IMG/VR virus record: IMGVR_UViG_3300047157_000150
Source of the DNA: an uncultured virus (IMG/VR IMGVR_UViG_3300047157_000150)
Taxonomy: Duplodnaviria; Heunggongvirae; Uroviricota; Caudoviricetes
Strand: one strand, 5' to 3'
Length of the DNA stretch: 64,000 nucleotides
Shown piece after piece: positions 39,221 to 54,874 of this stretch. Both the position numbers and the translations under genes were made by a program. The notes under the pieces were generated by a model. The model saw only the letters and a list, made by a program, of their open reading frames with translations. It was not told the DNA's origin and searched no databases. Positions within the stretch are counted from its first letter, which is position 1, and each line of letters opens with the position of its first letter.

Positions 39221-39802
39221 TCATGCGCTCACCACAATATGTTTTGGAGTATAATCTCCAGAAAAGAAACGCTGAACCCATTGTGCGCCATAACCTGCAA
39301 CCGCTACATGGGTAAAGTGAACTCCTTGATTGCTTCTATCCCAATTATCACCTTGACATGAGAAAGAACCATCAGGCCCCGTTGTTAATGTTGTGTAAAG
39401 TTTGGGGTCTTCATCCGAACTTACAAGCAAACCAGCACGACCTTGCGCTCTTAAATCAAGCCATCGAACTTCGGACTTGTAAAGCATCTTTCGCACATCT
39501 AAGTTATCAGCACAGCATATAACTAAGTCATAACCTTGAATCTGAGAAGGTGTAAGAACCTTGTAAGGTTGTGCATTAAATTTGTAATTTTGTGCAAGTG
39601 CTTCGGGCTTACTCAACCCTATATGGTCCTTGTCAAAGTTTTGATAACTCAAGTTTTTTGTTTCAACAACATCGGGGTCATACACTGTAATGTCATACAA
39701 CATTTTTTTAGTTTCACCCATTCTGTTTGCTCTATCCAATAGTGAAATTAGGTAAGACCCAATTCCACCGCATCCAATAATCATTATTTTATTTTTATTC
39801 AT
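39221..39802 (-). CDS. ThiF/MoeB/E1-like adenylyltransferase
   Basis: IIGCGGIGS, DPDVVETKNLSYQNF, KPEAL, DLVICCADN. Confidence 0.9.
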   Translation of the reverse strand: MNKNKIMIIGCGGIGSYLISLLDRANRMGETKKMLYDITVYDPDVVETKNLSYQNFDKDHIGLSKPEALAQNYKFNAQPYKVLTPSQIQGYDLVICCADNLDVRKMLYKSEVRWLDLRAQGRAGLLVSSDEDPKLYTTLTTGPDGSFSCQGDNWDRSNQGVHFTHVAVAGYGAQWVQRFFSGDYTPKHIVVSA

Positions 39803-40410
39803 ATATATTCCTCCAGTTTTTTTACATGTCGCCATACGGTATTTTCACTTACATGAAACATTCTCGCTACCTTACCATATGACAAGTCGGTAGCCAAATA
39901 TATACAAGACATAAGAACTTCTTTCGTAAGTTCCATATGTTTTGCAATATTTGTAATTAATTCATTCGCATTGATGCCTTGTGTATTACAGAACTCATGC
40001 GCTTCTTCAACTGAATAAACTAAGTCTATGTTGAAAACATCCTGTAATCTTTTAACAACGGTTTTAGCCCTGCGTGTTTTTACTCCCATAAAGCCGCCCA
40101 ACTTTGATATGTTGAGCGACTTGTTGTTAAGGAACACTACTGCTACTGCAAGTTCCGACATAGTATAATTACCCTTGAGCAAGGCAACATAAGATGAGCG
40201 AAACATTCTTTTAATTTGTTCTGTTTTTTCTAATTCAAACTCACCACAAAGTAATGATAGTTCGACTAAATTTCTGTCCACTTCGGTGTGTGGCTTAATT
40301 TCCATAATCCTTGATACATTAATCAGCCCACATTTGCTACAAACAAAAAGGTTTAACCCTTTGTCAAATTTGTTGGTACTTGAGCAATACAGACACGGCA
40401 TTCCAATCAA
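39799..40410 (-). CDS. tfb: Transcription factor B (TFB/TFIIB)-like
   Basis: Zn ribbon CLYC...VCSKCGLI, two cyclin-like repeats (AVAVVFL; SCIYLA), HTH VARMFHVSENTV. Confidence 0.7.
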   Translation of the reverse strand: MIGMPCLYCSSTNKFDKGLNLFVCSKCGLINVSRIMEIKPHTEVDRNLVELSLLCGEFELEKTEQIKRMFRSSYVALLKGNYTMSELAVAVVFLNNKSLNISKLGGFMGVKTRRAKTVVKRLQDVFNIDLVYSVEEAHEFCNTQGINANELITNIAKHMELTKEVLMSCIYLATDLSYGKVARMFHVSENTVWRHVKKLEEYI

Positions 40411-47079: not shown

Positions 47080-47348
47080 TTTATTTCCCTCCTCTCAATG
47101 AGAAAACTTTGCGATTTTGTTGTCTCGCACATTCCTCATGGTAGCCCAATTTTATTTCATCGGGGTGTAATAGGGACCCTCCGCATATTACGCAGTTGGT
47201 GTTAATCATTCTTCTTCCTCCACATCTTCGCTCACGATTGCCCATTCAAGGGCTTCATCTATTTCTAATTCCATTGTCGTGTCGTGCATTAGGTCAAAAA
47301 ACCATTCTATTTGTTCAGTTCTTAGTTCAATCGTTATTGTATAAATTT

Positions 47349-47579
47349 TCATTCTTCATCTCTCCTTAGTGTGTGGTCGGCATAGTAGCCTTCACGGTAT
47401 ATTTGTTTTGCCAAGCCTGAAAAGCAAGGCTTACAGAAGTGTGTAGCAAGACTACCACCTCCGGTCCAATCATAAATTATCTGACCTTTTAATGAGTGTA
47501 CTTCGAGTATATTAAGTCTACCTTCAGTAAGAATTACCTCGGCATTAGATTCACAGATATGACACTTCACTTCCACCAT
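47349..47579 (-). CDS. Zinc finger protein
   Basis: CHIC...CKPC. Confidence 0.5.
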   Translation of the reverse strand: MVEVKCHICESNAEVILTEGRLNILEVHSLKGQIIYDWTGGGSLATHFCKPCFSGLAKQIYREGYYADHTLRRDEE

Positions 47580-47676
47580 CTCCTACTATCTTGCTCGTAC
47601 ATTGTACTCTCTCTAAAAAGTTCTAATAAGAACCAGACGAAAAGAGAAAACACTATTGTCAAAAGCATTGTAATAA

Positions 47677-48105
47677 TCATCCGAAAATCACCTCTTCGAA
47701 TAGAGCATATTGCAGAAAAACATCTGCTGTTATTGCATCAAAATTTCCACTTATTAGGTCCCCATAGTGTCGGGGAGATTCCTTAGCCATTATCTTTAGA
47801 CCCTCGATTAGTTTGTGAATAGTAAGGTAATACTTACCATTTGCCGTGTCCATTTCCAATTCGTGTCCCTTAAATGTGTTCGGACCTTCGAGTAAAAATG
47901 GAACCTGATGATACCATCTCCAAGAAGTAACTGTGCTTAAAAAATCATTGGAAAAAAGGCCATGATATTGCCGTGTTTCTACACTGACATTGACCTTTCC
48001 AATCCAGTAATTACTTCCTCCTTCAAAGGCTGTTGATAACCACGGCCACATCATTTCTTCAGTAATAGTAGTTCCGTTTATTTCTACTGTTTGTCTTATT
48101 CTCAT
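47677..48105 (-). CDS. Conserved phage hypothetical protein
   Basis: AFEGGSNYW...DAITADVFLQYALFEEVIFG. Confidence 0.65.
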   Translation of the reverse strand: MRIRQTVEINGTTITEEMMWPWLSTAFEGGSNYWIGKVNVSVETRQYHGLFSNDFLSTVTSWRWYHQVPFLLEGPNTFKGHELEMDTANGKYYLTIHKLIEGLKIMAKESPRHYGDLISGNFDAITADVFLQYALFEEVIFG

Positions 48106-48550
48106 TCTTCTTCTCTCCTTATTCCTAATCCTTTACAATGTGGACAAGCCATGTGAATAAACATTCCACCGCCCCCACACATTCTACATCTCAATACTTC
48201 ACATCGCTTGCATGACTTAACGCCTTCCATATGTGGTAGGTGTACTAGTGGTATTCTACACCTCAAGTTCTTCATCTCCACATTTACATTTCGATTGCAA
48301 GGTTCGCCAAGCGTCTACATAAGTTACGCTTTGTGTTTCGCTTTCATACCATGTGTCTACTCCACATACGCATCTAATTGTTTTTTTCATTTCTTTTCAC
48401 CTACTCTTAATTTAAAGGATTCCTTACATGTTGGACACATAAAGAACCAGATATTGCGCTTATTTTCATAAATTCGCAAATCAACGAGCCACCCCGTTTC
48501 GCATTTCTTTTTACATTCAATGTGTTTTACCACGCCGTCGTTTATTTTCT

Positions 48551-49033
48551 TCAAAGCCATTCTGGTTTTCCTCCTAATTTATACTTTGCAAAATGTTTCT
48601 TTTCTGCAATGTAATAGTTGCGATACGCTTGTATTGTATCTTCGCATTTGTATTTGTCAGGCATACACTGTGGAGGTTCTTTCCAACCTGTGCCTAAATC
48701 TTCCGGTGGATTATTTATCACACCGATGAATCTTGAACTACCGTGTATCTTTCCATACCGGCGAGTGTATTCTTTGCACATCTCGACATATAGTTCATAA
48801 TGCCATAGATATTGCTCATTAGTTTCCCTTGTCCATATGGTTGAGGGGTGATTAATATGTGCTGGTTTGAATAGACCTATTTCAGATAGTCTCGCTGTTT
48901 TTTCCTTTGTGTCTGCTTTACACCAATGAATTGTGCATAACATTTGAGCCGATTCGGTTATCATTTTTACAATGTGTTTGTCGCACAATTCTTGTGCAGA
49001 AATCTGTGGGTTTCCTAGATAAAATATGTTCAT
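48551..49033 (-). CDS. Pyrimidine dimer DNA glycosylase/endonuclease V-like family protein
   Basis: MNIFYL...CDKHIVKM..ESAQML...H.NHPSTIW...EYTRRYGKIH...AYRNYY. Confidence 0.7.
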   Translation of the reverse strand: MNIFYLGNPQISAQELCDKHIVKMITESAQMLCTIHWCKADTKEKTARLSEIGLFKPAHINHPSTIWTRETNEQYLWHYELYVEMCKEYTRRYGKIHGSSRFIGVINNPPEDLGTGWKEPPQCMPDKYKCEDTIQAYRNYYIAEKKHFAKYKLGGKPEWL

Positions 49034-49119
49034 TTTTGTCACCATTTTTAAAATTTGATTTACAGTAGAAGTAGATAATCCTCTTTGAGTCATCATAAAA
49101 TATGTAGGTCATATTGACC

Positions 49120-49422
49120 GACATTCTCACCGTGAGACATATGAGAAACACAAACTGTATGAGAAAATGACCGTTCCTCATACGACTTGAAGGACATTCT
49201 CACTTTCTCATGTTTCTCACTCACTATGCCTTACACATATATAGATACATAATACATACTGATAGATATAATAATAATAATAAGAAAATAGAGTTAAGAG
49301 TATATGAGAATATTGAGAATATGAGAATGTCTTTAACATTGTAGCACTAACTACCATTATATCCTACAAAGTGTTTTCTCACGGTTGTCTCAAATGAGAA
49401 TGTCAAACAAAATGAATGAGAA
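49120..49422. repeat. Iteron-like TGAGAA/TTCTCA repeats around an AT-rich core (origin candidate)
   Basis: GACATTCTCAC at 49120 and 49193; ATGAGAATGTC at 49321 and 49394; more than ten core copies; AT-rich 49235-49300. Confidence 0.7.
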
Positions 49423-49733
49423 AGAATAATTAGTAATATGATTAATTTACAAAATAAACCAAAGTGAATTTTAATGTTGGCAATCTGTGTGATATTATTC
49501 AAACATTGGTTGTTGGTGTGCTTAAGATTGTCAATACTGCTTGAGGGGCGGAATCGCTTATAAAGCATCGGAAGATGTAGTGGAGCATACTAGGTGTATT
49601 AAATAAACTAAGTGTGCCGAGCAACACCTATATTAGTTTTAGTTATTTTACAACCATATGGTAATAGTAATTTGTATTATACCTCATAATACTAAAGACC
49701 AAATATCATATCACTCGAAGGAGGTTAAGCATT

Positions 49734-50357
49734 ATGTCAAAAAAAGAAATAACAAATGATGAATGGAATGCTTGGGCTGGGGATGTGCGAACATTCCTTG
49801 ACCAAGACTTAGAAGAGGTGTTGAGCGCAACTCAACAAATGATGGAAGCAAACGGAGAAGGCGAAGATTTCGATAGTGAAGAACTTGAAGAAAATTGGGA
49901 AGAAATGCAAGCCGCTCTTTCTGCTGGTGACCGTCGAGCAAAGAAGCGACAACTTCGAAAGAATGTTTTGTCCAATCATGGGCGAGGTTTCTTTGGATGG
50001 CCTAAGCGACAGGGTGGAGGAAAACCAACTCCTCTTTTCCAGCAAGTTGTTTTGGGTCAAGCCGATGCAATTTACGAAGAAGCCTATGGTGCTTTTTGGG
50101 ATGTTTTGGCAACTCATGGTGCTGAACACCTTGAAATGACCCGTTCATCTTCAAAAGATGGCGGAACTGACGGCCAAACCTACGGAACTCGTGACAATTT
50201 TGTTAAGGTTCGTGTGGTTTCCAAGAATACCTCGCTTAAGGGTGACATTCGTGAAGGACTTTGGCTCAATGCCAACGACCCTGAAGTGTTTGCCCTTTCT
50301 TCACCTTTGACACGCCCATATGTGCCGAAGGCTGCAAAGAAGGGTGACTCGGAATGA
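49734..50357 (+). CDS. Hypothetical, probably early protein
   Basis: SD GGAGGT; downstream of palindrome-AATTTGTA site. Confidence 0.75.
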   Translation: MSKKEITNDEWNAWAGDVRTFLDQDLEEVLSATQQMMEANGEGEDFDSEELEENWEEMQAALSAGDRRAKKRQLRKNVLSNHGRGFFGWPKRQGGGKPTPLFQQVVLGQADAIYEEAYGAFWDVLATHGAEHLEMTRSSSKDGGTDGQTYGTRDNFVKVRVVSKNTSLKGDIREGLWLNANDPEVFALSSPLTRPYVPKAAKKGDSE

Positions 50358-50386
50358 GAGTCTTCTTCAATGAAGACGAAGAATGA
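50354..50386 (+). CDS. Micro-ORF MRVFFNEDEE
   Basis: ATGA overlap, SD GGTGA; member of five-copy family. Confidence 0.55.
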   Translation: MRVFFNEDEE

Positions 50387-50622
50387 GTAAAATCATTCTC
50401 CGGGGCCAATTGTGAATATTCACTAAAGTAGAAGTAAACTACTATCGTTAAACGCACACGGGAGTTACGGATTCTTCCAAATTAAACAAAAATCCACCTT
50501 TTTTTACTTAGGGTATTCCATACAAATTATTAGAGTACCATATGGTAAGCGAAAATTTGTAAAGCACCTCATATACCTTTGAACCTAAGATTACCTTGCC
50601 CACAGCGGCAGGAGAACAAAAT

Positions 50623-50970
50623 ATGCAAATTGATGAAAATGCAATTGTAGCGAAGGCCAACAAACGGCTTGAAACAGCAGACGAGGAAGACACTGAGGAA
50701 ATTCAGTGGCTACTTTCTCGAATTGACAAAAGTGAGGGACAACGCCGGTTGAAAAACTGCGCTACCCTCGCAACCTACCTCAAAGAGGTCCGTGTCAAGG
50801 TTGTTTTGACTGATGAACAGGTTGCCGTTGCTTTCAGTGACAGTACAACGCTTCACGCACTTTTAAACAAGTACGAAGGTGTATCAATCCCTCGTACTGA
50901 GGGCAGAAGTCAAGAAGCACTTCAAGCAAACATTGAGGCCCACATGAAAGCATCCGAAAAGGGTGTTTGA
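50623..50970 (+). CDS. Hypothetical, probably early protein
   Basis: SD GGAGA then MQIDENAIV. Confidence 0.7.
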   Translation: MQIDENAIVAKANKRLETADEEDTEEIQWLLSRIDKSEGQRRLKNCATLATYLKEVRVKVVLTDEQVAVAFSDSTTLHALLNKYEGVSIPRTEGRSQEALQANIEAHMKASEKGV

Positions 50971-50997
50971 ATGTCCTTCAATGAAGACGAGGAGTGA
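50971..50997 (+). CDS. Micro-ORF MSFNEDEE
   Basis: ATG abuts upstream stop, SD GGGTG. Confidence 0.55.
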   Translation: MSFNEDEE

Positions 50998-51035
50998 TTT
51001 TTCACTCAAAAGGTCTTAACCACCTTCCTACGGGA

Positions 51036-51083
51036 AGGAGAGCCGCCCCCTTACCTTCTTTGGAGGGTTTGGGGGCCATTTTT
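51036..51083 (+). terminator. Hairpin plus T-tract
   Basis: GCCCCC...GGGGGC followed by ATTTTTT. Confidence 0.55.
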
Positions 51084-51162
51084 TAAGGATGTTTCACCAA
51101 CAAATTCTAAAATTACACATCCATATGGTTCATGCGTTAGCAGAATATGAGCCGCAGGGGGT

Positions 51163-51192
51163 GTGAAAGTGTTTAACGAAGACGAAGAGTGA
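51163..51192 (+). CDS. Micro-ORF (M)KVFNEDEE or (M)FNEDEE
   Basis: GTG starts at 51163/51169 after GGGGGTG. Confidence 0.45.
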   Translation: MKVFNEDEE

Positions 51193-51273
51193 ACTTGACT
51201 CCTAACTTTCCTTACCATATGGTAAGAATAATTTGTATGATACCCTATCTACCCAAAACCGAATTTTCATATC

Positions 51274-51447
51274 ATGTTTTGGAAAAAGCAAGAGCCGAAG
51301 TTCGTAATCAAAGTTAAACAGAACCGCTACGAAAAGTTCATCATTGACGAACTACGAGTAAGCGCAGATACTCAAGAAGAACTTGAAAAAGAACTCATTT
51401 TAGCCTTGAAACAAATCACTCAACAACTTCAGGAGATGAACGCATGA
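51274..51447 (+). CDS. Hypothetical 57-aa protein (not in ORF track)
   Basis: MFWKKQEPKFVIKVKQNRYEKFIIDELRVSADTQEELEKEL...; no SD, possibly leaderless. Confidence 0.65.
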   Translation: MFWKKQEPKFVIKVKQNRYEKFIIDELRVSADTQEELEKELILALKQITQQLQEMNA

Positions 51448-51641
51448 TGAACATTGGCCCTGTTGCACCTTTAGGTCATGGCTTTGTTGAAAAGCCATAT
51501 ACTAATTGTAAATGGTGTAAAGCAGACCTTGACCCAAACCAACACATGATGTATTATTGTGATACCGCTTGTTACTTTTCTCAAAATAAAACAGGTGAAT
51601 TAATTCAAACGCATTATGTCGCAAGGGAGGAAGAAGAATGA
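51444..51641 (+). CDS. Treble-clef-like zinc finger protein
   Basis: CKWC...YCDTAC. Confidence 0.6.
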   Translation: MMNIGPVAPLGHGFVEKPYTNCKWCKADLDPNQHMMYYCDTACYFSQNKTGELIQTHYVAREEEE

Positions 51642-51865
51642 ATACAGATTTAGAAGATACAGCAAGAAAGGTAGAAATGTCCGTACATGAGGTTCTCGCT
51701 TTTATGAGTAAAGAAGAACTCATTGATAAAATTGTGGAATATATGCAAGGGTGGAACAAGGTCGCACTTGTAGATTTCTTAGGAGAAGAAGTCTATGGTG
51801 ACGATTCTGCACCAGCCTTACTTGAGGAAATTATTAAGGCTCATCGAATTAACCCCTTTGATTAG
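51638..51865 (+). CDS. Hypothetical acidic protein
   Basis: Coupled ORF, SD GGAGG. Confidence 0.6.
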   Translation: MNTDLEDTARKVEMSVHEVLAFMSKEELIDKIVEYMQGWNKVALVDFLGEEVYGDDSAPALLEEIIKAHRINPFD

Positions 51866-52244
51866 GGAAATGACGCGAGTGGTGGAGGGTGGAAAAGTAA
51901 GGATTAATTGGTTATTAATTCGCATAGGTACTTGTTTTTAGAACTTTAAAATCTATGGATTATAAAAGGATTATCTGTCCTATGATACTGACCAACCTAA
52001 AAGACGATTGGGTGAGAGGCCCAAAACCTTTTCAATTGCAGGTTTATCCCGTAAAAATACTACAACTTGTTGGCTCGTTTTTCGTATCACTGAAAACTCG
52101 GATTAAAAGATGGCGGCTGTGAAAGGTCGGTCTTTGGTATTTACCTGCGTCCCTTTTTACTTTTTTTTCATTAGGGTAGTTATACAAATTATAGACTACC
52201 ATATGGTAGGCGATAGCATTCTACCCTCGGTAGGGGTGAAAAAA

Positions 52245-52268
52245 TTGTTTAACGAAGATGAAGAGTGA
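52245..52268 (+). CDS. Micro-ORF (M)FNEDEE; also in frame with ATG at 52203
   Basis: TTG after GGGGTGA. Confidence 0.45.
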   Translation: MFNEDEE

Positions 52269-52370
52269 TTCTATCACTTCATTTTTTCTTACCATATGGT
52301 AATATGCGGAACAATAAGGTCCGGTACAATATACCCCCCCGTGAGGTAATTGCTAATAAAGGATTTTTTG

Positions 52371-53267
52371 ACCCACCCACTAACCGCCCTAATCCTTTAT
52401 TATTAATACCATATGGTAAGGAACAAAGTGACGCAACCTGAGATTAAAGACACTTCGTTGTGAAATGTACTCGGCAGAAATCAAAAATAATTTTAACCCA
52501 CCCTCTAACCACCCAATTATCTTTAATTTCCTTGAGACATTTAATCTTGAACCATATGGTAAGGAAACATAATGTTTTTTATGTTGAGCGAAAAGGAATG
52601 TATGCGAAGACTAATACATTCTTTGAGCGGTAGGGCTATCAGCCCAATAGAAAGCGTTAGTATTTCGCAACCTGACGAGGACCGTAAAATACATCTGCTT
52701 TCTGGTAGAGATTTTAACCCACCCTCGAACCACCCAATCTCTACCAGACGCACAGTATTTTACTTTGCTTCGCAACCATATGGTAATAATAATGAACAAG
52801 GAGTTAGAGAGTATTCACTGAACAATACTCTCTACGACGCTGTGAGTATATATCCTTAACTAAATTTACTAAGGAATTTTAACCCACCCTCGAACCTCCC
52901 TTCCATATGGTAAGGAAGTATGACGCAACCTGAAAGGTTCGTCGGCTTCGCCACTACAAGAAAAATATTAACCCTCCCTCAACCACCCTATTTTTCTTGT
53001 AAGTCTACGCCTCCTTACCATATGGTACAATATCGAGCAAGGCGAGGAAAATTAGCAGGAACTGTTTTGACGAGACAGCGTTAGTTTATGTGCCTTAAAA
53101 AAAATAAAAATTAAGATACATTTACCCACCCTCGAACCACCCGTATCATATGGTTGTACTTGGCGTGACATGTAAATGTATAGCCAAATCAGTACACCCC
53201 ACCTATATATAAGGTTTGAAAAACTAAACTTTAATATGATATTGTCTTTCCCACCCTCTAACCACCC
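52371..53267 (+). repeat. Seven direct copies of ACCCACCCTC(G/T)AACCACCC
   Basis: At 52371, 52496, 52717, 52882, 52971, 53124, 53249. Confidence 0.95.
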
Positions 53268-53346
53268 ACACTATCAGACAAAAGTTTACTTTTTCGTCTA
53301 TTGACATAGAACCATATGGTATGAAATTTGTTATTACCCCGACCTA

Positions 53347-53370
53347 AAGAAAAGGGCCGAAGCCCCCTTC
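53347..53370 (-). terminator. Hairpin plus T-tract
   Basis: GAAGGGGGC-TTCG-GCCCTTTTCTT on - strand after the micro-ORF. Confidence 0.65.
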
Positions 53371-53374
53371 TTGT

Positions 53375-53398
53375 TTATTCTTCATCTTCATTCAGCAT
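53375..53398 (-). CDS. Micro-ORF MLNEDEE
   Basis: TGATG overlap with upstream gene, SD GGTGA, terminator follows. Confidence 0.55.
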   Translation of the reverse strand: MLNEDEE

Positions 53399-53538
53399 CA
53401 GTAGTCACCTTCAATAATAACAGCCTTAATTTGACCCTCTTCTTTCAGTTCTTCATAACAGCCTCTACAAAGGTTCCCAAATTCCGGTAATGTCATAATC
53501 ACCTTTGTTGAGCCACATTCATATCCTTCACATTTCAT
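53398..53538 (-). CDS. 46-aa zinc finger protein (not in ORF track)
   Basis: MKCEGYECGSTKVIMTLPEFGNLCRGCYEELKEEG... Confidence 0.6.
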   Translation of the reverse strand: MKCEGYECGSTKVIMTLPEFGNLCRGCYEELKEEGQIKAVIIEGDY

Positions 53539-53657
53539 GGTTCTCCAGCCCCATCTAGTTCTACTGTTGCTTCAACCCAACATGGGGTGCATAGACCATC
53601 AGTTTCAACTTTATCATCACACGACAGTTCAATAGTACACATCTTACACTTTGACAT
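53535..53657 (-). CDS. 40-aa zinc finger protein
   Basis: MSKCKMC...LCTPCW. Confidence 0.55.
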   Translation of the reverse strand: MSKCKMCTIELSCDDKVETDGLCTPCWVEATVELDGAGEP

Positions 53658-54115
53658 GGTATTATCATAAATCAAAACACCATAAGGTAGTTCACAAATT
53701 TTCCTTACCATATGGTTCACTTTGGGAATTTTTTTATTTAAAAAACATTAAATACGCAAAGCCTCTATTTATTTTTATGAAAGACTTTATGAAACCGGCT
53801 ATGCGCCAACACAAAAATACCTTATATTTGCCCTCAATGTGGGCATTAATGGATGAATTTGATAAATTATTATTCATATGGGACCAATTTGACCAACTTT
53901 GGCGCAACTCATACCCCCCTCCAGCAAAAAATCAAGAAGAATTAAGTATTTTACTTGCTCATATGGCCGAAACTCGCCAAAACTGTAAAACTTTATATAG
54001 ACATTGCGAATTAGACTGTAATAGTTGGAGTGCATTACAAGATTTACCTTTGGATAACCTCGTAATTCGCCAAAAGGGGAATACACTTGACAAAGAAGAC
54101 TCAAATAAGAAATAA
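53651..54115 (+). CDS. Hypothetical protein (start likely near 53780-53800)
   Basis: ORF track; 5' part overlaps repeat site. Confidence 0.4.
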   Translation: MTWYYHKSKHHKVVHKFSLPYGSLWEFFYLKNIKYAKPLFIFMKDFMKPAMRQHKNTLYLPSMWALMDEFDKLLFIWDQFDQLWRNSYPPPAKNQEELSILLAHMAETRQNCKTLYRHCELDCNSWSALQDLPLDNLVIRQKGNTLDKEDSNKK

Positions 54116-54310
54116 AGTAAGGCGAAAAAAGGGTGAACCAAGTAAAAAGACTGAAAAACTAAGACCTAATAAACCAAATTATCAAAGAAAGAAAAGGAGA
54201 AGATAAATAATGATGAGTAATATTCGCTGGGAATGGAATAAAAAAGAAAAATTTTTTTTCGCTAGTCCCAAAAAAATTCCCGGTCATTTTTTCAACAAGG
54301 CGGTGTAATA

Positions 54311-54874
54311 ATGGGTTGGCAAGATATATTAAAAATAGAACTGAGGCCTAAAGATGTTAAGCGATTAGGAGAAAGATATGCGTTAATGGATTTGTATGAA
54401 TCTAAATTAATGACCCAAGAAGAATATGATAGATTGCCAGATATAGGAGATGGGAAAAAAATTAGCGGTAATTTACCACCAACGAGCAAAAAATCCTATC
54501 ATCTTAGATTATCAGCATTTTTAAAAGAAAATAAAGATTCTCCTATGACTATGGAATTGGAAAAATATCGTAAATTTCATTATGCGATGTATATTAGATT
54601 ACGAAGGGGGGCTGAAGCCCCAAGTCCAACCTTAGAATTATTTCGTGTGTCAGGAGTGGGCTACTCTCCGGGAAAAAGATTAACCCGAAAAAACAGAAAC
54701 CCAAAAGGTCCATCGAAATATACCCCAGTTTCCCAAATCATTGTTGATTATTTTACACTCTATAACCGTAAGTTTGGCCGTAATCCCACTTTACAAGAAA
54801 TAGCAAATGAAGAGGATAGACCCCTTACAGTAGATGAAATTGAATCGTTTAAAAGATATTCACAGGGTAGGTGA
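54311..54874 (+). CDS. W-tag protein, basic
   Basis: Starts MGWQDILK. Confidence 0.7.
   Translation: MGWQDILKIELRPKDVKRLGERYALMDLYESKLMTQEEYDRLPDIGDGKKISGNLPPTSKKSYHLRLSAFLKENKDSPMTMELEKYRKFHYAMYIRLRRGAEAPSPTLELFRVSGVGYSPGKRLTRKNRNPKGPSKYTPVSQIIVDYFTLYNRKFGRNPTLQEIANEEDRPLTVDEIESFKRYSQGR

Follow-up and report, generated by a model that had tools for sequence, protein, structure and literature searches.

The locus considered here raises the question of whether an open reading frame of only a few codons, repeated within one viral genome, is a translated gene, and what its product would do. The window, by which we mean the whole stretch of 64,000 nucleotides that was analysed, comes from an uncultured tailed virus, and the original prediction held that it carries five micro-ORFs encoding NEDEE followed by a stop, each with a GGTG-type SD and three of them coupled to the stop of an upstream gene. 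All five were found and read as claimed:

50354..50386, plus strand: micro-ORF 1, MRVFFNEDEE; start codon overlapping the gene A stop (ATGA)
50971..50997, plus strand: micro-ORF 2, MSFNEDEE; abuts the TGA of gene B (TGAATG)
51169..51192, plus strand: micro-ORF 3, MFNEDEE from a GTG start; inside free-standing module 3
52245..52268, plus strand: micro-ORF 4, MFNEDEE from a TTG start; inside free-standing module 4
53375..53398, minus strand: micro-ORF 5, MLNEDEE; its ATG overlaps the TGA of a 46-aa Cys-rich ORF (TGATG)

A GGTG-type SD lies 5-7 nt upstream of each of the five, and the three coupled copies follow ORFs of 207, 124 and 46 aa through the junctions ATGA, TGAATG and TGATG, as had been proposed. 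Across NEDEE-stop, the copies differ only by synonymous third-position transitions or by TGA/TAA, which bears out the further claim of synonymous change alone. As evidence of selection this identity is only weakly informative, because few third-position transitions and no transversions separate the copies, and we estimate that under free exchange of Asp and Glu such identity would arise with P of roughly 0.1.

Matches to AAYGARGAYGARGARTRR were located at 50369, 50980, 51175 and 52251 on the plus strand and at 53392-53375 on the minus strand (n=5), and no match was obtained in 100 dinucleotide-preserving shuffles of the window. Using a stricter background rule (a short stop-to-stop frame with a start, ending in at least four Asp/Glu residues), 17 frames were found in 104,820 bases of relatives versus 3 in 742,401 bases of unrelated phage loci; the window itself contains four, all at 49-54 kb, and none in the rest. 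Motif matches were likewise confined to one region in each of two complete relatives (90.8 and 92.3 kb), with no control hits, and the motif was absent from a 16.7-kb fragment (G001). A blastn search with the 4.2-kb region against a phage collection gave no match. Logan contigs from four marine RNA libraries (at least 99% identity) span micro-ORFs 1 and 2, covering 49664-50486, 50617-51046 and pieces of 51502-51751 and 53433-53800 but no part of 51150-51500 or 52150-53400, with carry-over of DNA possible; contigs from two studies begin at 50617/50618.

The window looks like the genome of a magrovirus-like virus, judging from its gene content, and the virus probably infects an archaeon of Marine Group II. 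Magroviruses rank with the most abundant archaeal viruses in surface seawater, their hosts are uncultured, and to our knowledge almost nothing is known of how they control expression. According to published descriptions, those of group B are about 100 kb in length and carry a GroEL-type chaperonin, ribonucleotide reductase, tRNA-Leu and tRNA-Arg, a clamp loader and an archaeo-eukaryotic primase, as well as a PolB that is related to that of tailed viruses of haloarchaea and is free of interruptions outside subgroup B1. The window contains GroEL, ribonucleotide reductase, an RFC-like AAA protein, a primase hit and tRNA-Leu, tRNA-Met and tRNA-Arg, and also the haloarchaeal-virus-related family B DNA polymerase of group B: the best tblastn matches of its 821-aa PolB are tailed viruses of Halorubrum and Haloarcula (~25% identity over 81-85% of the query). 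The two relatives rated complete, at 90.8 and 92.3 kb, compare with the ~100 kb of magrovirus genomes. A scan of genome contigs returned a single family member, a 43-kb contig binned in a MAG with the label Altibacter, which was rejected as host evidence; its module is identical to that of a viral locus (L020) and it is probably a mis-binned viral contig. A scan for sigma-70 promoters and terminators was also set aside, since with an archaeal host it would carry no meaning.

The three coupled copies and their surroundings comprise the following features:

49734..50357, plus strand: gene A, 207 aa, helical, of no known family; last in a small unit beginning at the 49653 palindrome
50623..50970, plus strand: gene B, helical, of no known family; 115 aa with the ATG at 50623 as start, 124 aa with the TTG at 50596
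51027..51090, plus strand: GC-rich hairpins and then a T run, downstream of micro-ORF 2
53398..53538, minus strand: Cys-rich (Zn-ribbon-like) ORF, 46 aa, upstream of micro-ORF 5
53340..53372, unstranded: GC hairpin AAGGGGGCTTCGGCCC, terminator-like on both strands, between micro-ORF 5 and the palindrome array

Each coupled copy is the last ORF before terminator-like hairpins, and the fold of 50955-51095 has a z of -4.07. Neither gene A nor gene B gave hits in Pfam or PHROG; structure models were helical (pLDDT 82.7, pTM 0.48) and matched nothing in the PDB at E <= 0.001, and word-based and exhaustive searches assembled a small family (4 proteins, and 31 representatives). The coupled acidic micro-ORF was kept in 9/9 orthologous loci of family A and in 8/8 of family B, with protein identity falling to about 25-35%. 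Family A micro-peptides read RVFFNEDEE, KSFFEDDEE, KHFFHFFEDDEE, SIFFDDDE and LNRFFDDDDD, those of family B SFNEDEE, NFNDDDE, IFSEDDE, NLFDDDE, KSVIGFTDDDE and IRRDDDE, and the orthologue of micro-ORF 5 in a related locus (L228) is MFNDDDE. We also considered whether the micro-ORFs are tails of genes A and B made by programmed -1 frameshifting or read-through, and rejected this; the junctions compared (TCGGAATGA, CTCAATGA, TCCGAATGA, ATCAAAGTGA, TGAATG and TAAGGTTG) share no slippery site and their frame relation varies. A Phe-plus-acidic tail was found at the protein end in 0/17 of the distant family A proteins inspected.

The two uncoupled copies sit in free-standing modules of roughly 100 nt, each set between two ACCATATGGT palindromes:

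49653..53716, unstranded: 11 exact ACCATATGGT palindromes plus variants, delimiting units and modules
51121..51223, plus strand: module 3, palindrome to palindrome; covariance model 60.7 bits, E 4e-13
51127-51153, plus strand: P1 hairpin of module 3, followed by the SD at 51154-51163, the micro-ORF and helix P2
52198..52300, plus strand: module 4, palindrome to palindrome; covariance model 47.2 bits, E 1.4e-9
52205-52225, plus strand: P1 hairpin of module 4, followed by the SD at about 52231-52238, the micro-ORF and a GAAAAAA/TTTTTTC helix

The 11 exact palindromes, all in one 4-kb region, compare with 0.05 expected, and the palindrome is probably bound by a regulator. P1 is a 5' hairpin with a conserved GCGWWAGCA loop; it is followed by a long, strong, GGAGGTGA-type SD whose 5' half is exposed. 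In helix P2, the spacer between SD and start, together with the start codon, is paired with sequence 3' of the micro-ORF; the left half of the following palindrome doubles as the 3' strand of P2, and its right half begins the next P1, so that the micro-ORF is embedded in mutually exclusive pairings of the kind seen in attenuators. The module is clearly a structured RNA, with a fold backed by covariation: 90% of cells are paired, both sides change in 23/25 pairs, and double-change cells number 206, compared with 53.9 +/- 5.7 after shuffling and 16-35 in slid controls. Single-sequence folding z values were modest (-0.4 to -2.5). The covariance model gave 83 hits; within the window it matched only the two free-standing copies and not the coupled ones. 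Modules are shuffled between related genomes. At the gathering score, Rfam found only the three tRNAs in the window, and at E up to 1 the region 49000-54400 gave two weak matches (E 0.085 and 0.16), far under the cut-offs. Readings of P1 and of a GAUGA-rich loop as K-turn or C/D box were discarded, the boxes being absent from the window copies.

Among 53 distinct high-scoring modules from marine metagenomes, an SD, a start, 6-14 codons with at least three Asp/Glu and a stop were all kept in 52; the remaining one was cut short in the alignment, and its full copy reads MINPDDDIDHDGE. The check that random frame-breaking or non-synonymous change, or loss of starts, in homologues would speak for a motif without a peptide was thus carried out, and SD, start, frame and stop were retained. 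In the 52 module ORFs, starts are ATG (31), GTG (17) and TTG (4), stops are TGA (40) and TAA (12), and the last residue is Glu in 45 and Asp in 5; all have at least three Asp/Glu, most with 4-5 in positions 3-8. Acidic codons keep GA and vary in the third base, and Ser is retained through switches between AGT or AGC and TCA. The modules encode 30 distinct peptides with the consensus M-x-F-(F/N)-[DE]-D-D-E, and position preferences (n=41) are Glu at -1 (35/41), Asp at -2 (26/41), Asp at -3 (33/41) and Phe at -6 (21/41). Basic residues are nearly absent, Pro is missing from 28/30 peptides, and Cys is present in some variants. Changes in homologues are non-random, consisting of exchange of Asp with Glu and among Phe, Asn, Tyr and Leu. 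Selection on translation of the micro-ORFs is therefore, as far as comparison of sequences can tell, strongly supported. The core of the original prediction, namely translated micro-ORFs under selection on the peptide, stands up to this check; exact NEDEE is not the conserved unit, and relatives carry FFDDDE, FNDEDE, FDDDDE, YNSDEDDDE and others. The functions it offered, a free peptide (inhibitor, tail mimic or signal) or a translated element controlling mRNA 3' ends, are proposals, and it had foreseen neither the structured module around the uncoupled copies nor a probable archaeal host. Tails are shared within some genomes, with NEDEE in 5/5 copies in the window and FDDDE in 3/3 (L018) and 3/4 (L016), and mixed in L014 (NEDDE, NEEDE, NDEDE). 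The search that had been suggested, the regex TTYAAYGARGAYGARGARTRA over viral contigs, yielded 12 loci (about 7 distinct sequences), all of them C-termini of 17-140-codon ORFs on unrelated contigs lacking palindromes; as their count is about that of the chance estimate, (1/32)^7 per site, we did not use them as support.

The peptide type is the sole feature common to the coupled and free-standing formats. In both, the acidic run is always C-terminal, a hydrophobic residue precedes it and the N-terminal length varies, which fits a motif read from a free C-terminus; the product takes the form M-x(0-6)-F/L-(F/N/Y)-[DE]-D-D-E-COOH. We favour a trans-acting peptide, the main rival being that the acidic nascent chain affects its ribosome in cis. 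Specifically, we give about an even chance to the proposal that the micro-ORFs are real translated genes of an early or regulatory region whose product is a peptide effector made in bulk and acting in trans. In the coupled format, a ribosome terminating on the last gene (family A, family B or Zn-ribbon) would re-initiate on the 7-14-codon ORF that overlaps its stop, and in the free-standing format the micro-ORF would be expressed from a structured mini-mRNA of ~100 nt, whose fold may confer stability and controlled, standby-type initiation. The peptide, supplied from several loci early in infection, could then mimic an acidic C-terminal tail, or compete with one, at a site on a viral or host protein that is basic or depends on cations, or, given Cys in some variants, serve as a metal ligand. 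Against this proposal, a peptide of 6-14 aa should turn over quickly and bind weakly, and in the free-standing modules the start codon lies in a helix, which is odd for maximal output and typical of regulatory leader ORFs. The order of Asp and Glu varies between copies in some genomes (for example, L014), so recognition of the peptide, if any, is loose. A bolder form, which we put forward tentatively and think somewhat doubtful, is that the modules are complete ~100-nt genes for a dedicated effector, Phe-(Phe/Asn)-Asp/Glu-Asp-Asp-Glu-COOH, used to hijack or sense the archaeal host; the self-occluding RNA would then make translation one-shot or conditional, and the tails shared within genomes would point to co-evolution with one partner.

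The main rival, which we consider unlikely, if still to be reckoned with, is that an acidic run from start to stop would perturb its own ribosome, either by intrinsic ribosome destabilization (IRD), as in MgtL, or by slow termination, as in MAGDIS. The ribosome's position would choose among P2, the palindrome hairpin and the next P1, or would shield or expose the mRNA 3' end, and the effect might depend on Mg2+ or polyamines. According to one study, IRD in E. coli is maximal with MEPDPT of MgtL and with N-terminal six-residue windows rich in Asp/Glu and Pro (10.1101/2021.02.02.429294), and IRD is reported in eukaryotes too in two others (PMC12673854, PMC11162784). The module ORFs carry such an Asp/Glu-rich stretch close to the start (at least three Asp/Glu in 52/52, and 4-5 at positions 3-8 in most), and acidic residues at positions 3-8 of a 6-8-residue chain reproduce the situation of maximal IRD. 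Because bases 3' of the ORF hold spacer and start in a helix, a translating ribosome has to remodel the RNA, and the sharing of palindrome halves between P2 and the next P1, as well as the stop (TGA in 40/52 modules) immediately after the acidic run, is in keeping with a cis effect. However, no regulated gene lies consistently downstream, many modules precede non-coding modules and the coupled copies precede terminator-like hairpins. The positional preferences for Asp or Glu and the conserved Phe would be superfluous for a charge effect. According to the same study, IRD in E. coli is counteracted by bulky residues close to the peptidyl-transferase centre (10.1101/2021.02.02.429294), and in the literature consulted we found no report of IRD in archaea.

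That the element acts solely as RNA or DNA, with the GAN repeat, 'SD' and 'start' as parts of an RNA, an origin or a protein site and the ORF incidental, is improbable in our judgement. The covarying fold agrees with it, as does the position of the region at a GC-skew turning point amid palindromes and G-rich repeats that could be parts of a replication origin. Yet the coupled copies, unmatched by the module model, still keep the peptide type, and frame, start and stop persist in 52/53 modules despite ORF lengths of 6-14 codons, with the start limited to ATG, GTG and TTG and with Ser switching codon families. Moreover, the ORF that opens at the palindrome ATG shares the frame of the micro-ORF in some modules only and is out of frame elsewhere. 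Regulatory codon runs in bacterial leader peptides resemble these Asp/Glu runs, and a leader sensing Asp- or Glu-tRNA supply by attenuation would draw on the 4-7 Asp/Glu codons per 6-11 and on the alternative pairings; we hold it very improbable, as the next ORF was absent or inconsistent in the 48 modules examined, the conserved Phe, the stop position and the operon-end copies are left unexplained, and we know of no established hairpin-dependent attenuation in archaea. Least credible of all is that the peptides are precursors for a viral ThiF/E1-like adenylating enzyme, by analogy with MccA/MccB and PaaP/PaaA: a ThiF-family ORF (39221-39835, Pfam E 1.4e-12) is present in 5/5 related records, which says little because the relatives are largely syntenic, and it lies 10 kb off, has a generic signature under every NCBIfam cut-off and no visible peptide-clamp domain, and neither a C-terminal Asn (the peptides end in Glu or Asp) nor an adjacent MccB-type enzyme was seen among the 52 module ORFs or in the window.

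A multi-copy gene family of 6-14 codons, partly within a covarying RNA fold, would escape every gene caller, and it bears on the lower size limit of a functional gene. Should the dedicated-effector reading be true, the modules would rank with the smallest autonomous genes known; should the cis reading be true, they would be a first candidate, in archaea and their viruses, for ribosome sensing through the nascent chain. The synthetic peptide, the ~100-nt RNA and the palindrome provide testable handles on early infection.

Nothing similar seems to have been described previously, and we found no paper on such a micro-ORF or module. Several known systems share parts of the arrangement. The mccA gene, seven codons for the microcin C heptapeptide, is likewise an autonomous, very short ORF with its own SD, a hairpin close 3' and a short transcript reportedly dependent on ribosome binding; MccA, however, ends in Asn and mccA adjoins mccB in a bacterial operon, whereas the peptides described here end in Glu or Asp and belong to a probable archaeal virus, whose genome encodes them 3-5 times, either at the end of an operon or in a module flanked by palindromes. 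The MAGDIS uORF of S-adenosylmethionine decarboxylase mRNA, six codons long, acts at its own stop and depends on its peptide sequence, but it lies in a eukaryotic 5' leader and senses polyamines. The bar minigenes of lambda are also viral ORFs of few (2-3) codons with strong SDs that act through the translation machinery; they have no conserved peptide, in contrast to the conserved composition and near-C-terminal order of the micro-ORF peptides. Promoter-early stem-loop (PeSL) cassettes of T4-type phages are, like the modules, repeated and shuffled between related genomes, there in a plastic early region, but contain no conserved micro-ORF. MgtL shares the acidic residues right after the initiator Met, the very short ORF and the alternative RNA pairings; it is a Pro-containing leader of 17 codons upstream of mgtA (10.1101/2021.02.02.429294), whereas the micro-ORFs have no consistent downstream gene, mostly lack Pro, conserve a Phe and stop straight after the acidic run.

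The five micro-ORFs ending in NEDEE-stop that the original prediction placed in this stretch were confirmed by a pattern search as well as by sequence reading and an ORF scan. The AAYGARGAYGARGARTRR pattern matched the window five times (50369, 50980, 51175 and 52251 on the plus strand; 53392-53375 on the minus strand), with no match in 100 dinucleotide-preserving shuffles. Sequence reading and the ORF scan gave the following micro-ORFs:

50354-50386, plus strand: micro-ORF 1, MRVFFNEDEE
50971-50997, plus strand: micro-ORF 2, MSFNEDEE
51169-51192, plus strand: micro-ORF 3, MFNEDEE, GTG start
52245-52268, plus strand: micro-ORF 4, MFNEDEE, TTG start
53398-53375, minus strand: micro-ORF 5, MLNEDEE

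As had been proposed, change across NEDEE-stop is synonymous only, the sole differences being third-position transitions and the use of TGA or TAA. The GGTG-type Shine-Dalgarno sequence (SD) expected on each copy was found 5-7 nt 5' of the start in all five, and the coupling claimed for three copies was likewise observed, these overlapping or abutting the stop of an upstream ORF (ATGA, TGAATG and TGATG). When short stop-to-stop frames with a start and an end of at least four D/E were counted as background, unrelated phage loci had 3 in 742 kb and relatives had 17 in 105 kb; the four that the window holds by this strict rule all lie in 49-54 kb. Small Cys-rich proteins of unrelated viral contigs (L001-L012) end in ...FNEDEE, e.g. 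...ECRVFFYFNEDEE, strikingly like MRVFFNEDEE, though at about chance frequency.

Relatives of the window virus were collected via the neighbouring phrog_624 gene, whose protein is 78-96% identical to that of the window in loci L013-L018 and 54% identical in L019 and L020. Every one of these relatives carries 5-14 CCATATGG palindromes; the exact NEDEE motif is present in none of them, and their homologous micro-ORFs end in different acidic tails. Nine loci hold orthologues of gene A (207 aa), at blastp identities that fall as low as 25-35%, and a stop/start-overlapping micro-ORF follows the gene in 9/9 (MRVFFNEDEE, MKSFFEDDEE, MKHFFHFFEDDEE, MSIFFDDDE, M(SKL)LNRFFDDDDD, MFNRFFDDDDD and MLNRFFDDDDD). 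For gene B there are 8 loci with an orthologue, and a micro-ORF comes after it in 8/8 (MSFNEDEE, MNFNDDDE, MIFSEDDE, MNLFDDDE, MNHFDDDE, MKSVIGFTDDDE and MIRRDDDE). Downstream of the 46-aa Cys-rich gene lies MLNEDEE in the window and MFNDDDE in locus L228; in L018 another ORF takes this place and a micro-ORF is lacking, which fits attachment of the micro-ORF to the last gene of a unit. Since by inspection the gene-micro-ORF junctions have no common slippery site and their frame relation varies between copies, the junctions are read, from sequence, as putative termination-reinitiation sites rather than as recoding sites. None of 17 distant family-A proteins inspected had a fused Phe-plus-acidic tail.

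Contigs of four marine RNA libraries (at least 99% identity) span micro-ORFs 1 and 2; they may be of DNA origin and do not indicate transcript ends. RNA-library contigs of two studies (X4 and X6) start within 1 nt of each other at 50617/50618, 5-6 nt 5' of the gene B ATG and just past GGAG, which hints weakly at a 5' end or processing site. In addition, several small Cys-rich proteins at 47081-48560 (minus strand) and 51444-51641 (plus strand) end in EEE/EEEE; the codons for these ends, GAGGAAGAAGAATGA, overlap with the start of the following gene, whose SD shapes the acidic C-terminus.

Micro-ORFs 3 and 4 are free-standing, each in an RNA module flanked by two ACCATATGGT palindromes. A metagenome scan using the palindrome plus the adjoining hairpin loop as the pattern returned at least 122 loci, and two or more palindromes were present in 61 of 122 among the matches listed. 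In single-sequence folds of 50 units, a 5' hairpin (P1) that opens at the palindrome GG and has the loop GCGWWAGCA formed in 41, the GCAGGAG segment was unpaired, and the start codon was paired in 36. In the second helix (P2), a strand that runs from the 3' part of the SD across the spacer to the start codon and codon 2 pairs with sequence 3' of the ORF that extends into the left half of the next palindrome. A covariance model made from four units matched family loci (227 kb in total) at 83 sites. In the model-fitted alignment 90% of cells pair, both-side changes occur in 23 of 25 pairs, and double-change cells number 206, versus 53.9 +/- 5.7 in column shuffles and 16-35 with partners slid by 1-3 columns; covariation includes the pair formed by the first start-codon base (A-U 22, G-C 15). 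Many pairs are G-U, which assigns the fold to the ORF-sense strand. Single modules have modest thermodynamic z-scores (-0.4 to -2.5), so the fold is supported mainly by covariation. No Rfam family matches the module.

The window contains 11 exact palindromes versus 0.05 expected, all within 49.6-53.7 kb. A 12-14-bp palindrome, TTACCATATGGTAA, bounds every unit at 49653-53716, often paired with a ATACAAATTAT / ATAATTTGTAT box on one or both sides, and probably binds a dimeric regulator. It is at the palindromes that related genomes differ by shuffling of modules. At 52365-53270, which is C-rich on the plus and G-rich on the minus strand, a conserved 20-22-nt loop, TTAACCCACCCTCKAACCACCC (GGGTGGTTCGAGGGTGGG on the opposite strand), occurs in seven copies, each closed by inverted repeats of differing sequence (covarying stems) and with a palindrome after it. 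This second type of module, perhaps a structured RNA or an origin element, is also found in loci L113, L165, L171 and L183. Canonical G-quadruplex motifs, e.g. GGGTTGGGAGGGCGGG, lie in the same arrays as the micro-ORF modules in relatives.

The coding tally covered 53 distinct modules among the best 65 of the 83 covariance-model matches. SD, start, a 6-14-codon ORF with at least three D/E, and stop were all kept in 52 of 53 (ATG 31, GTG 17, TTG 4; TGA 40, TAA 12); the 53rd entry is a cut-off piece of alignment, and its complete copy encodes MINPDDDIDHDGE. The 30 different peptides include MFFDDDE, MFDDDE, MFYDDDE, MFNEDDE, MFEDED, MLYEDED, MKYASDEDDDE and MIYNSDEDDE, and, with Cys, MFCDDD, MFDCDD and MICEDDECDCE. 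In the acidic codons GA is invariant and the third base variable, and Ser is kept across AGT/TCA and AGC/TCA codon switches. C-terminal preferences are E at -1 (35/41), D at -2 (26/41), D at -3 (33/41) and F at -6 (21/41), and basic residues are nearly absent. By inspection, the frame running from the palindrome ATG through P1 differs between modules, unlike the micro-ORF frame. The coupled copies are unmatched by the covariance model, yet have the same peptide type. Together with the coding signature and the unkept P1 frame, this strongly supports, at the level of sequence, selection on translation of the micro-ORFs and on their peptide or nascent chain.

The window has a GC content of ~36% and long co-oriented gene blocks diverging around 49-54 kb. 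It encodes a family B DNA polymerase (PolB), an RFC-like clamp loader, a primase, an ERCC4/XPF nuclease, GroEL, ribonucleotide reductase (RNR) and a ThiF-like protein, as well as tRNA-Leu, tRNA-Met and tRNA-Arg. The ThiF/E1-like adenylating enzyme (39221-39835, minus strand) is conserved in 5/5 related viral records, with an in-frame TGA in one (G005), and a wHTH/MarR-like ORF is at 39799-40410. Five consecutive plus-strand proteins (54311, 54880, 55586, 55936 and 56328) start with MGWQDILK, MGWFDILK, MDWRNKLK or MSWRDKLVK, a common motif that could be a targeting or processing signal. No DNA match to the window was found in the phage collection, and the best tblastn matches of PolB were haloarchaeal tailed viruses (~25% identity). 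In Philosof et al. (2017, PMC5434244), magroviruses are assigned to Marine Group II archaea and described as ~100 kbp, with halovirus-like PolB, RFC and AEP primase, GroEL in groups B, B1 and C, RNR, tRNA-Leu and tRNA-Arg in group B, and a split PolB gene in only seven group-B genomes. By its features the window fits magrovirus group B, and we infer a Marine Group II archaeal host, which makes a sigma-70 scan of the window irrelevant. Two relatives rated complete are 90.8 and 92.3 kb. The GGAGGTGA-type SDs of the window would suit an archaeal host. A 43-kb contig (L235) from a MAG labelled Altibacter shares an identical module with viral locus L020 (74.6 bits); this contig is probably of viral origin and was placed in a bacterial bin.

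We give an even chance to the micro-ORF product being a trans-acting peptide. The coupled and free-standing formats share nothing but the peptide type; the acidic run is always at a free C-terminus, preceded by Phe or Leu, with variable N-terminal length and D-versus-E position preferences; there are several copies per genome, and micro-ORFs are attached to well-translated early genes. Such a system would produce a short acidic C-terminal motif in bulk, with the module fold stabilising a tiny mRNA and the exposed 5' half of the SD serving as a standby site; for the Cys-containing variants, a metal ligand would be an alternative role. However, the product is very short, and an occluded start is odd in a production device. 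A cis effect of the acidic nascent chain on its own translating ribosome is the main rival reading, at a lower probability. Intrinsic ribosome destabilization (IRD) in E. coli has as its condition an acidic run right after Met, which the micro-ORFs match, and is counteracted by bulky residues, which speaks against it here (10.1101/2021.02.02.429294). IRD is also reported in eukaryotes. The paired start codon and shared palindrome strands offer a switch, but there is no consistent gene downstream and charge alone leaves the residue order unexplained. An element working as RNA or DNA only is very improbable, and an Asp/Glu-sensing leader is less probable still. Least probable is a micro-peptide substrate of the ThiF-like enzyme, whose ORF is present in 5/5 relatives but is generic and distant.

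The peptide strings of the micro-ORFs were in no paper of the literature searched, where only CCATATGG matched, in primers. The main texts of two magrovirus papers (PMC11706807 and PMC10160649) do not mention palindromes, intergenic, non-coding or promoter, and that of Philosof et al. (PMC5434244) does not mention palindromes, repeats or promoters. Micro-ORFs acting via their peptide or their translation are known, among them MgtL (10.1101/2021.02.02.429294). Further examples are mccA, the MAGDIS uORF and the lambda bar minigenes. The window family is set apart from these by its sequence, its context, its multiplicity, its RNA fold and its host domain.
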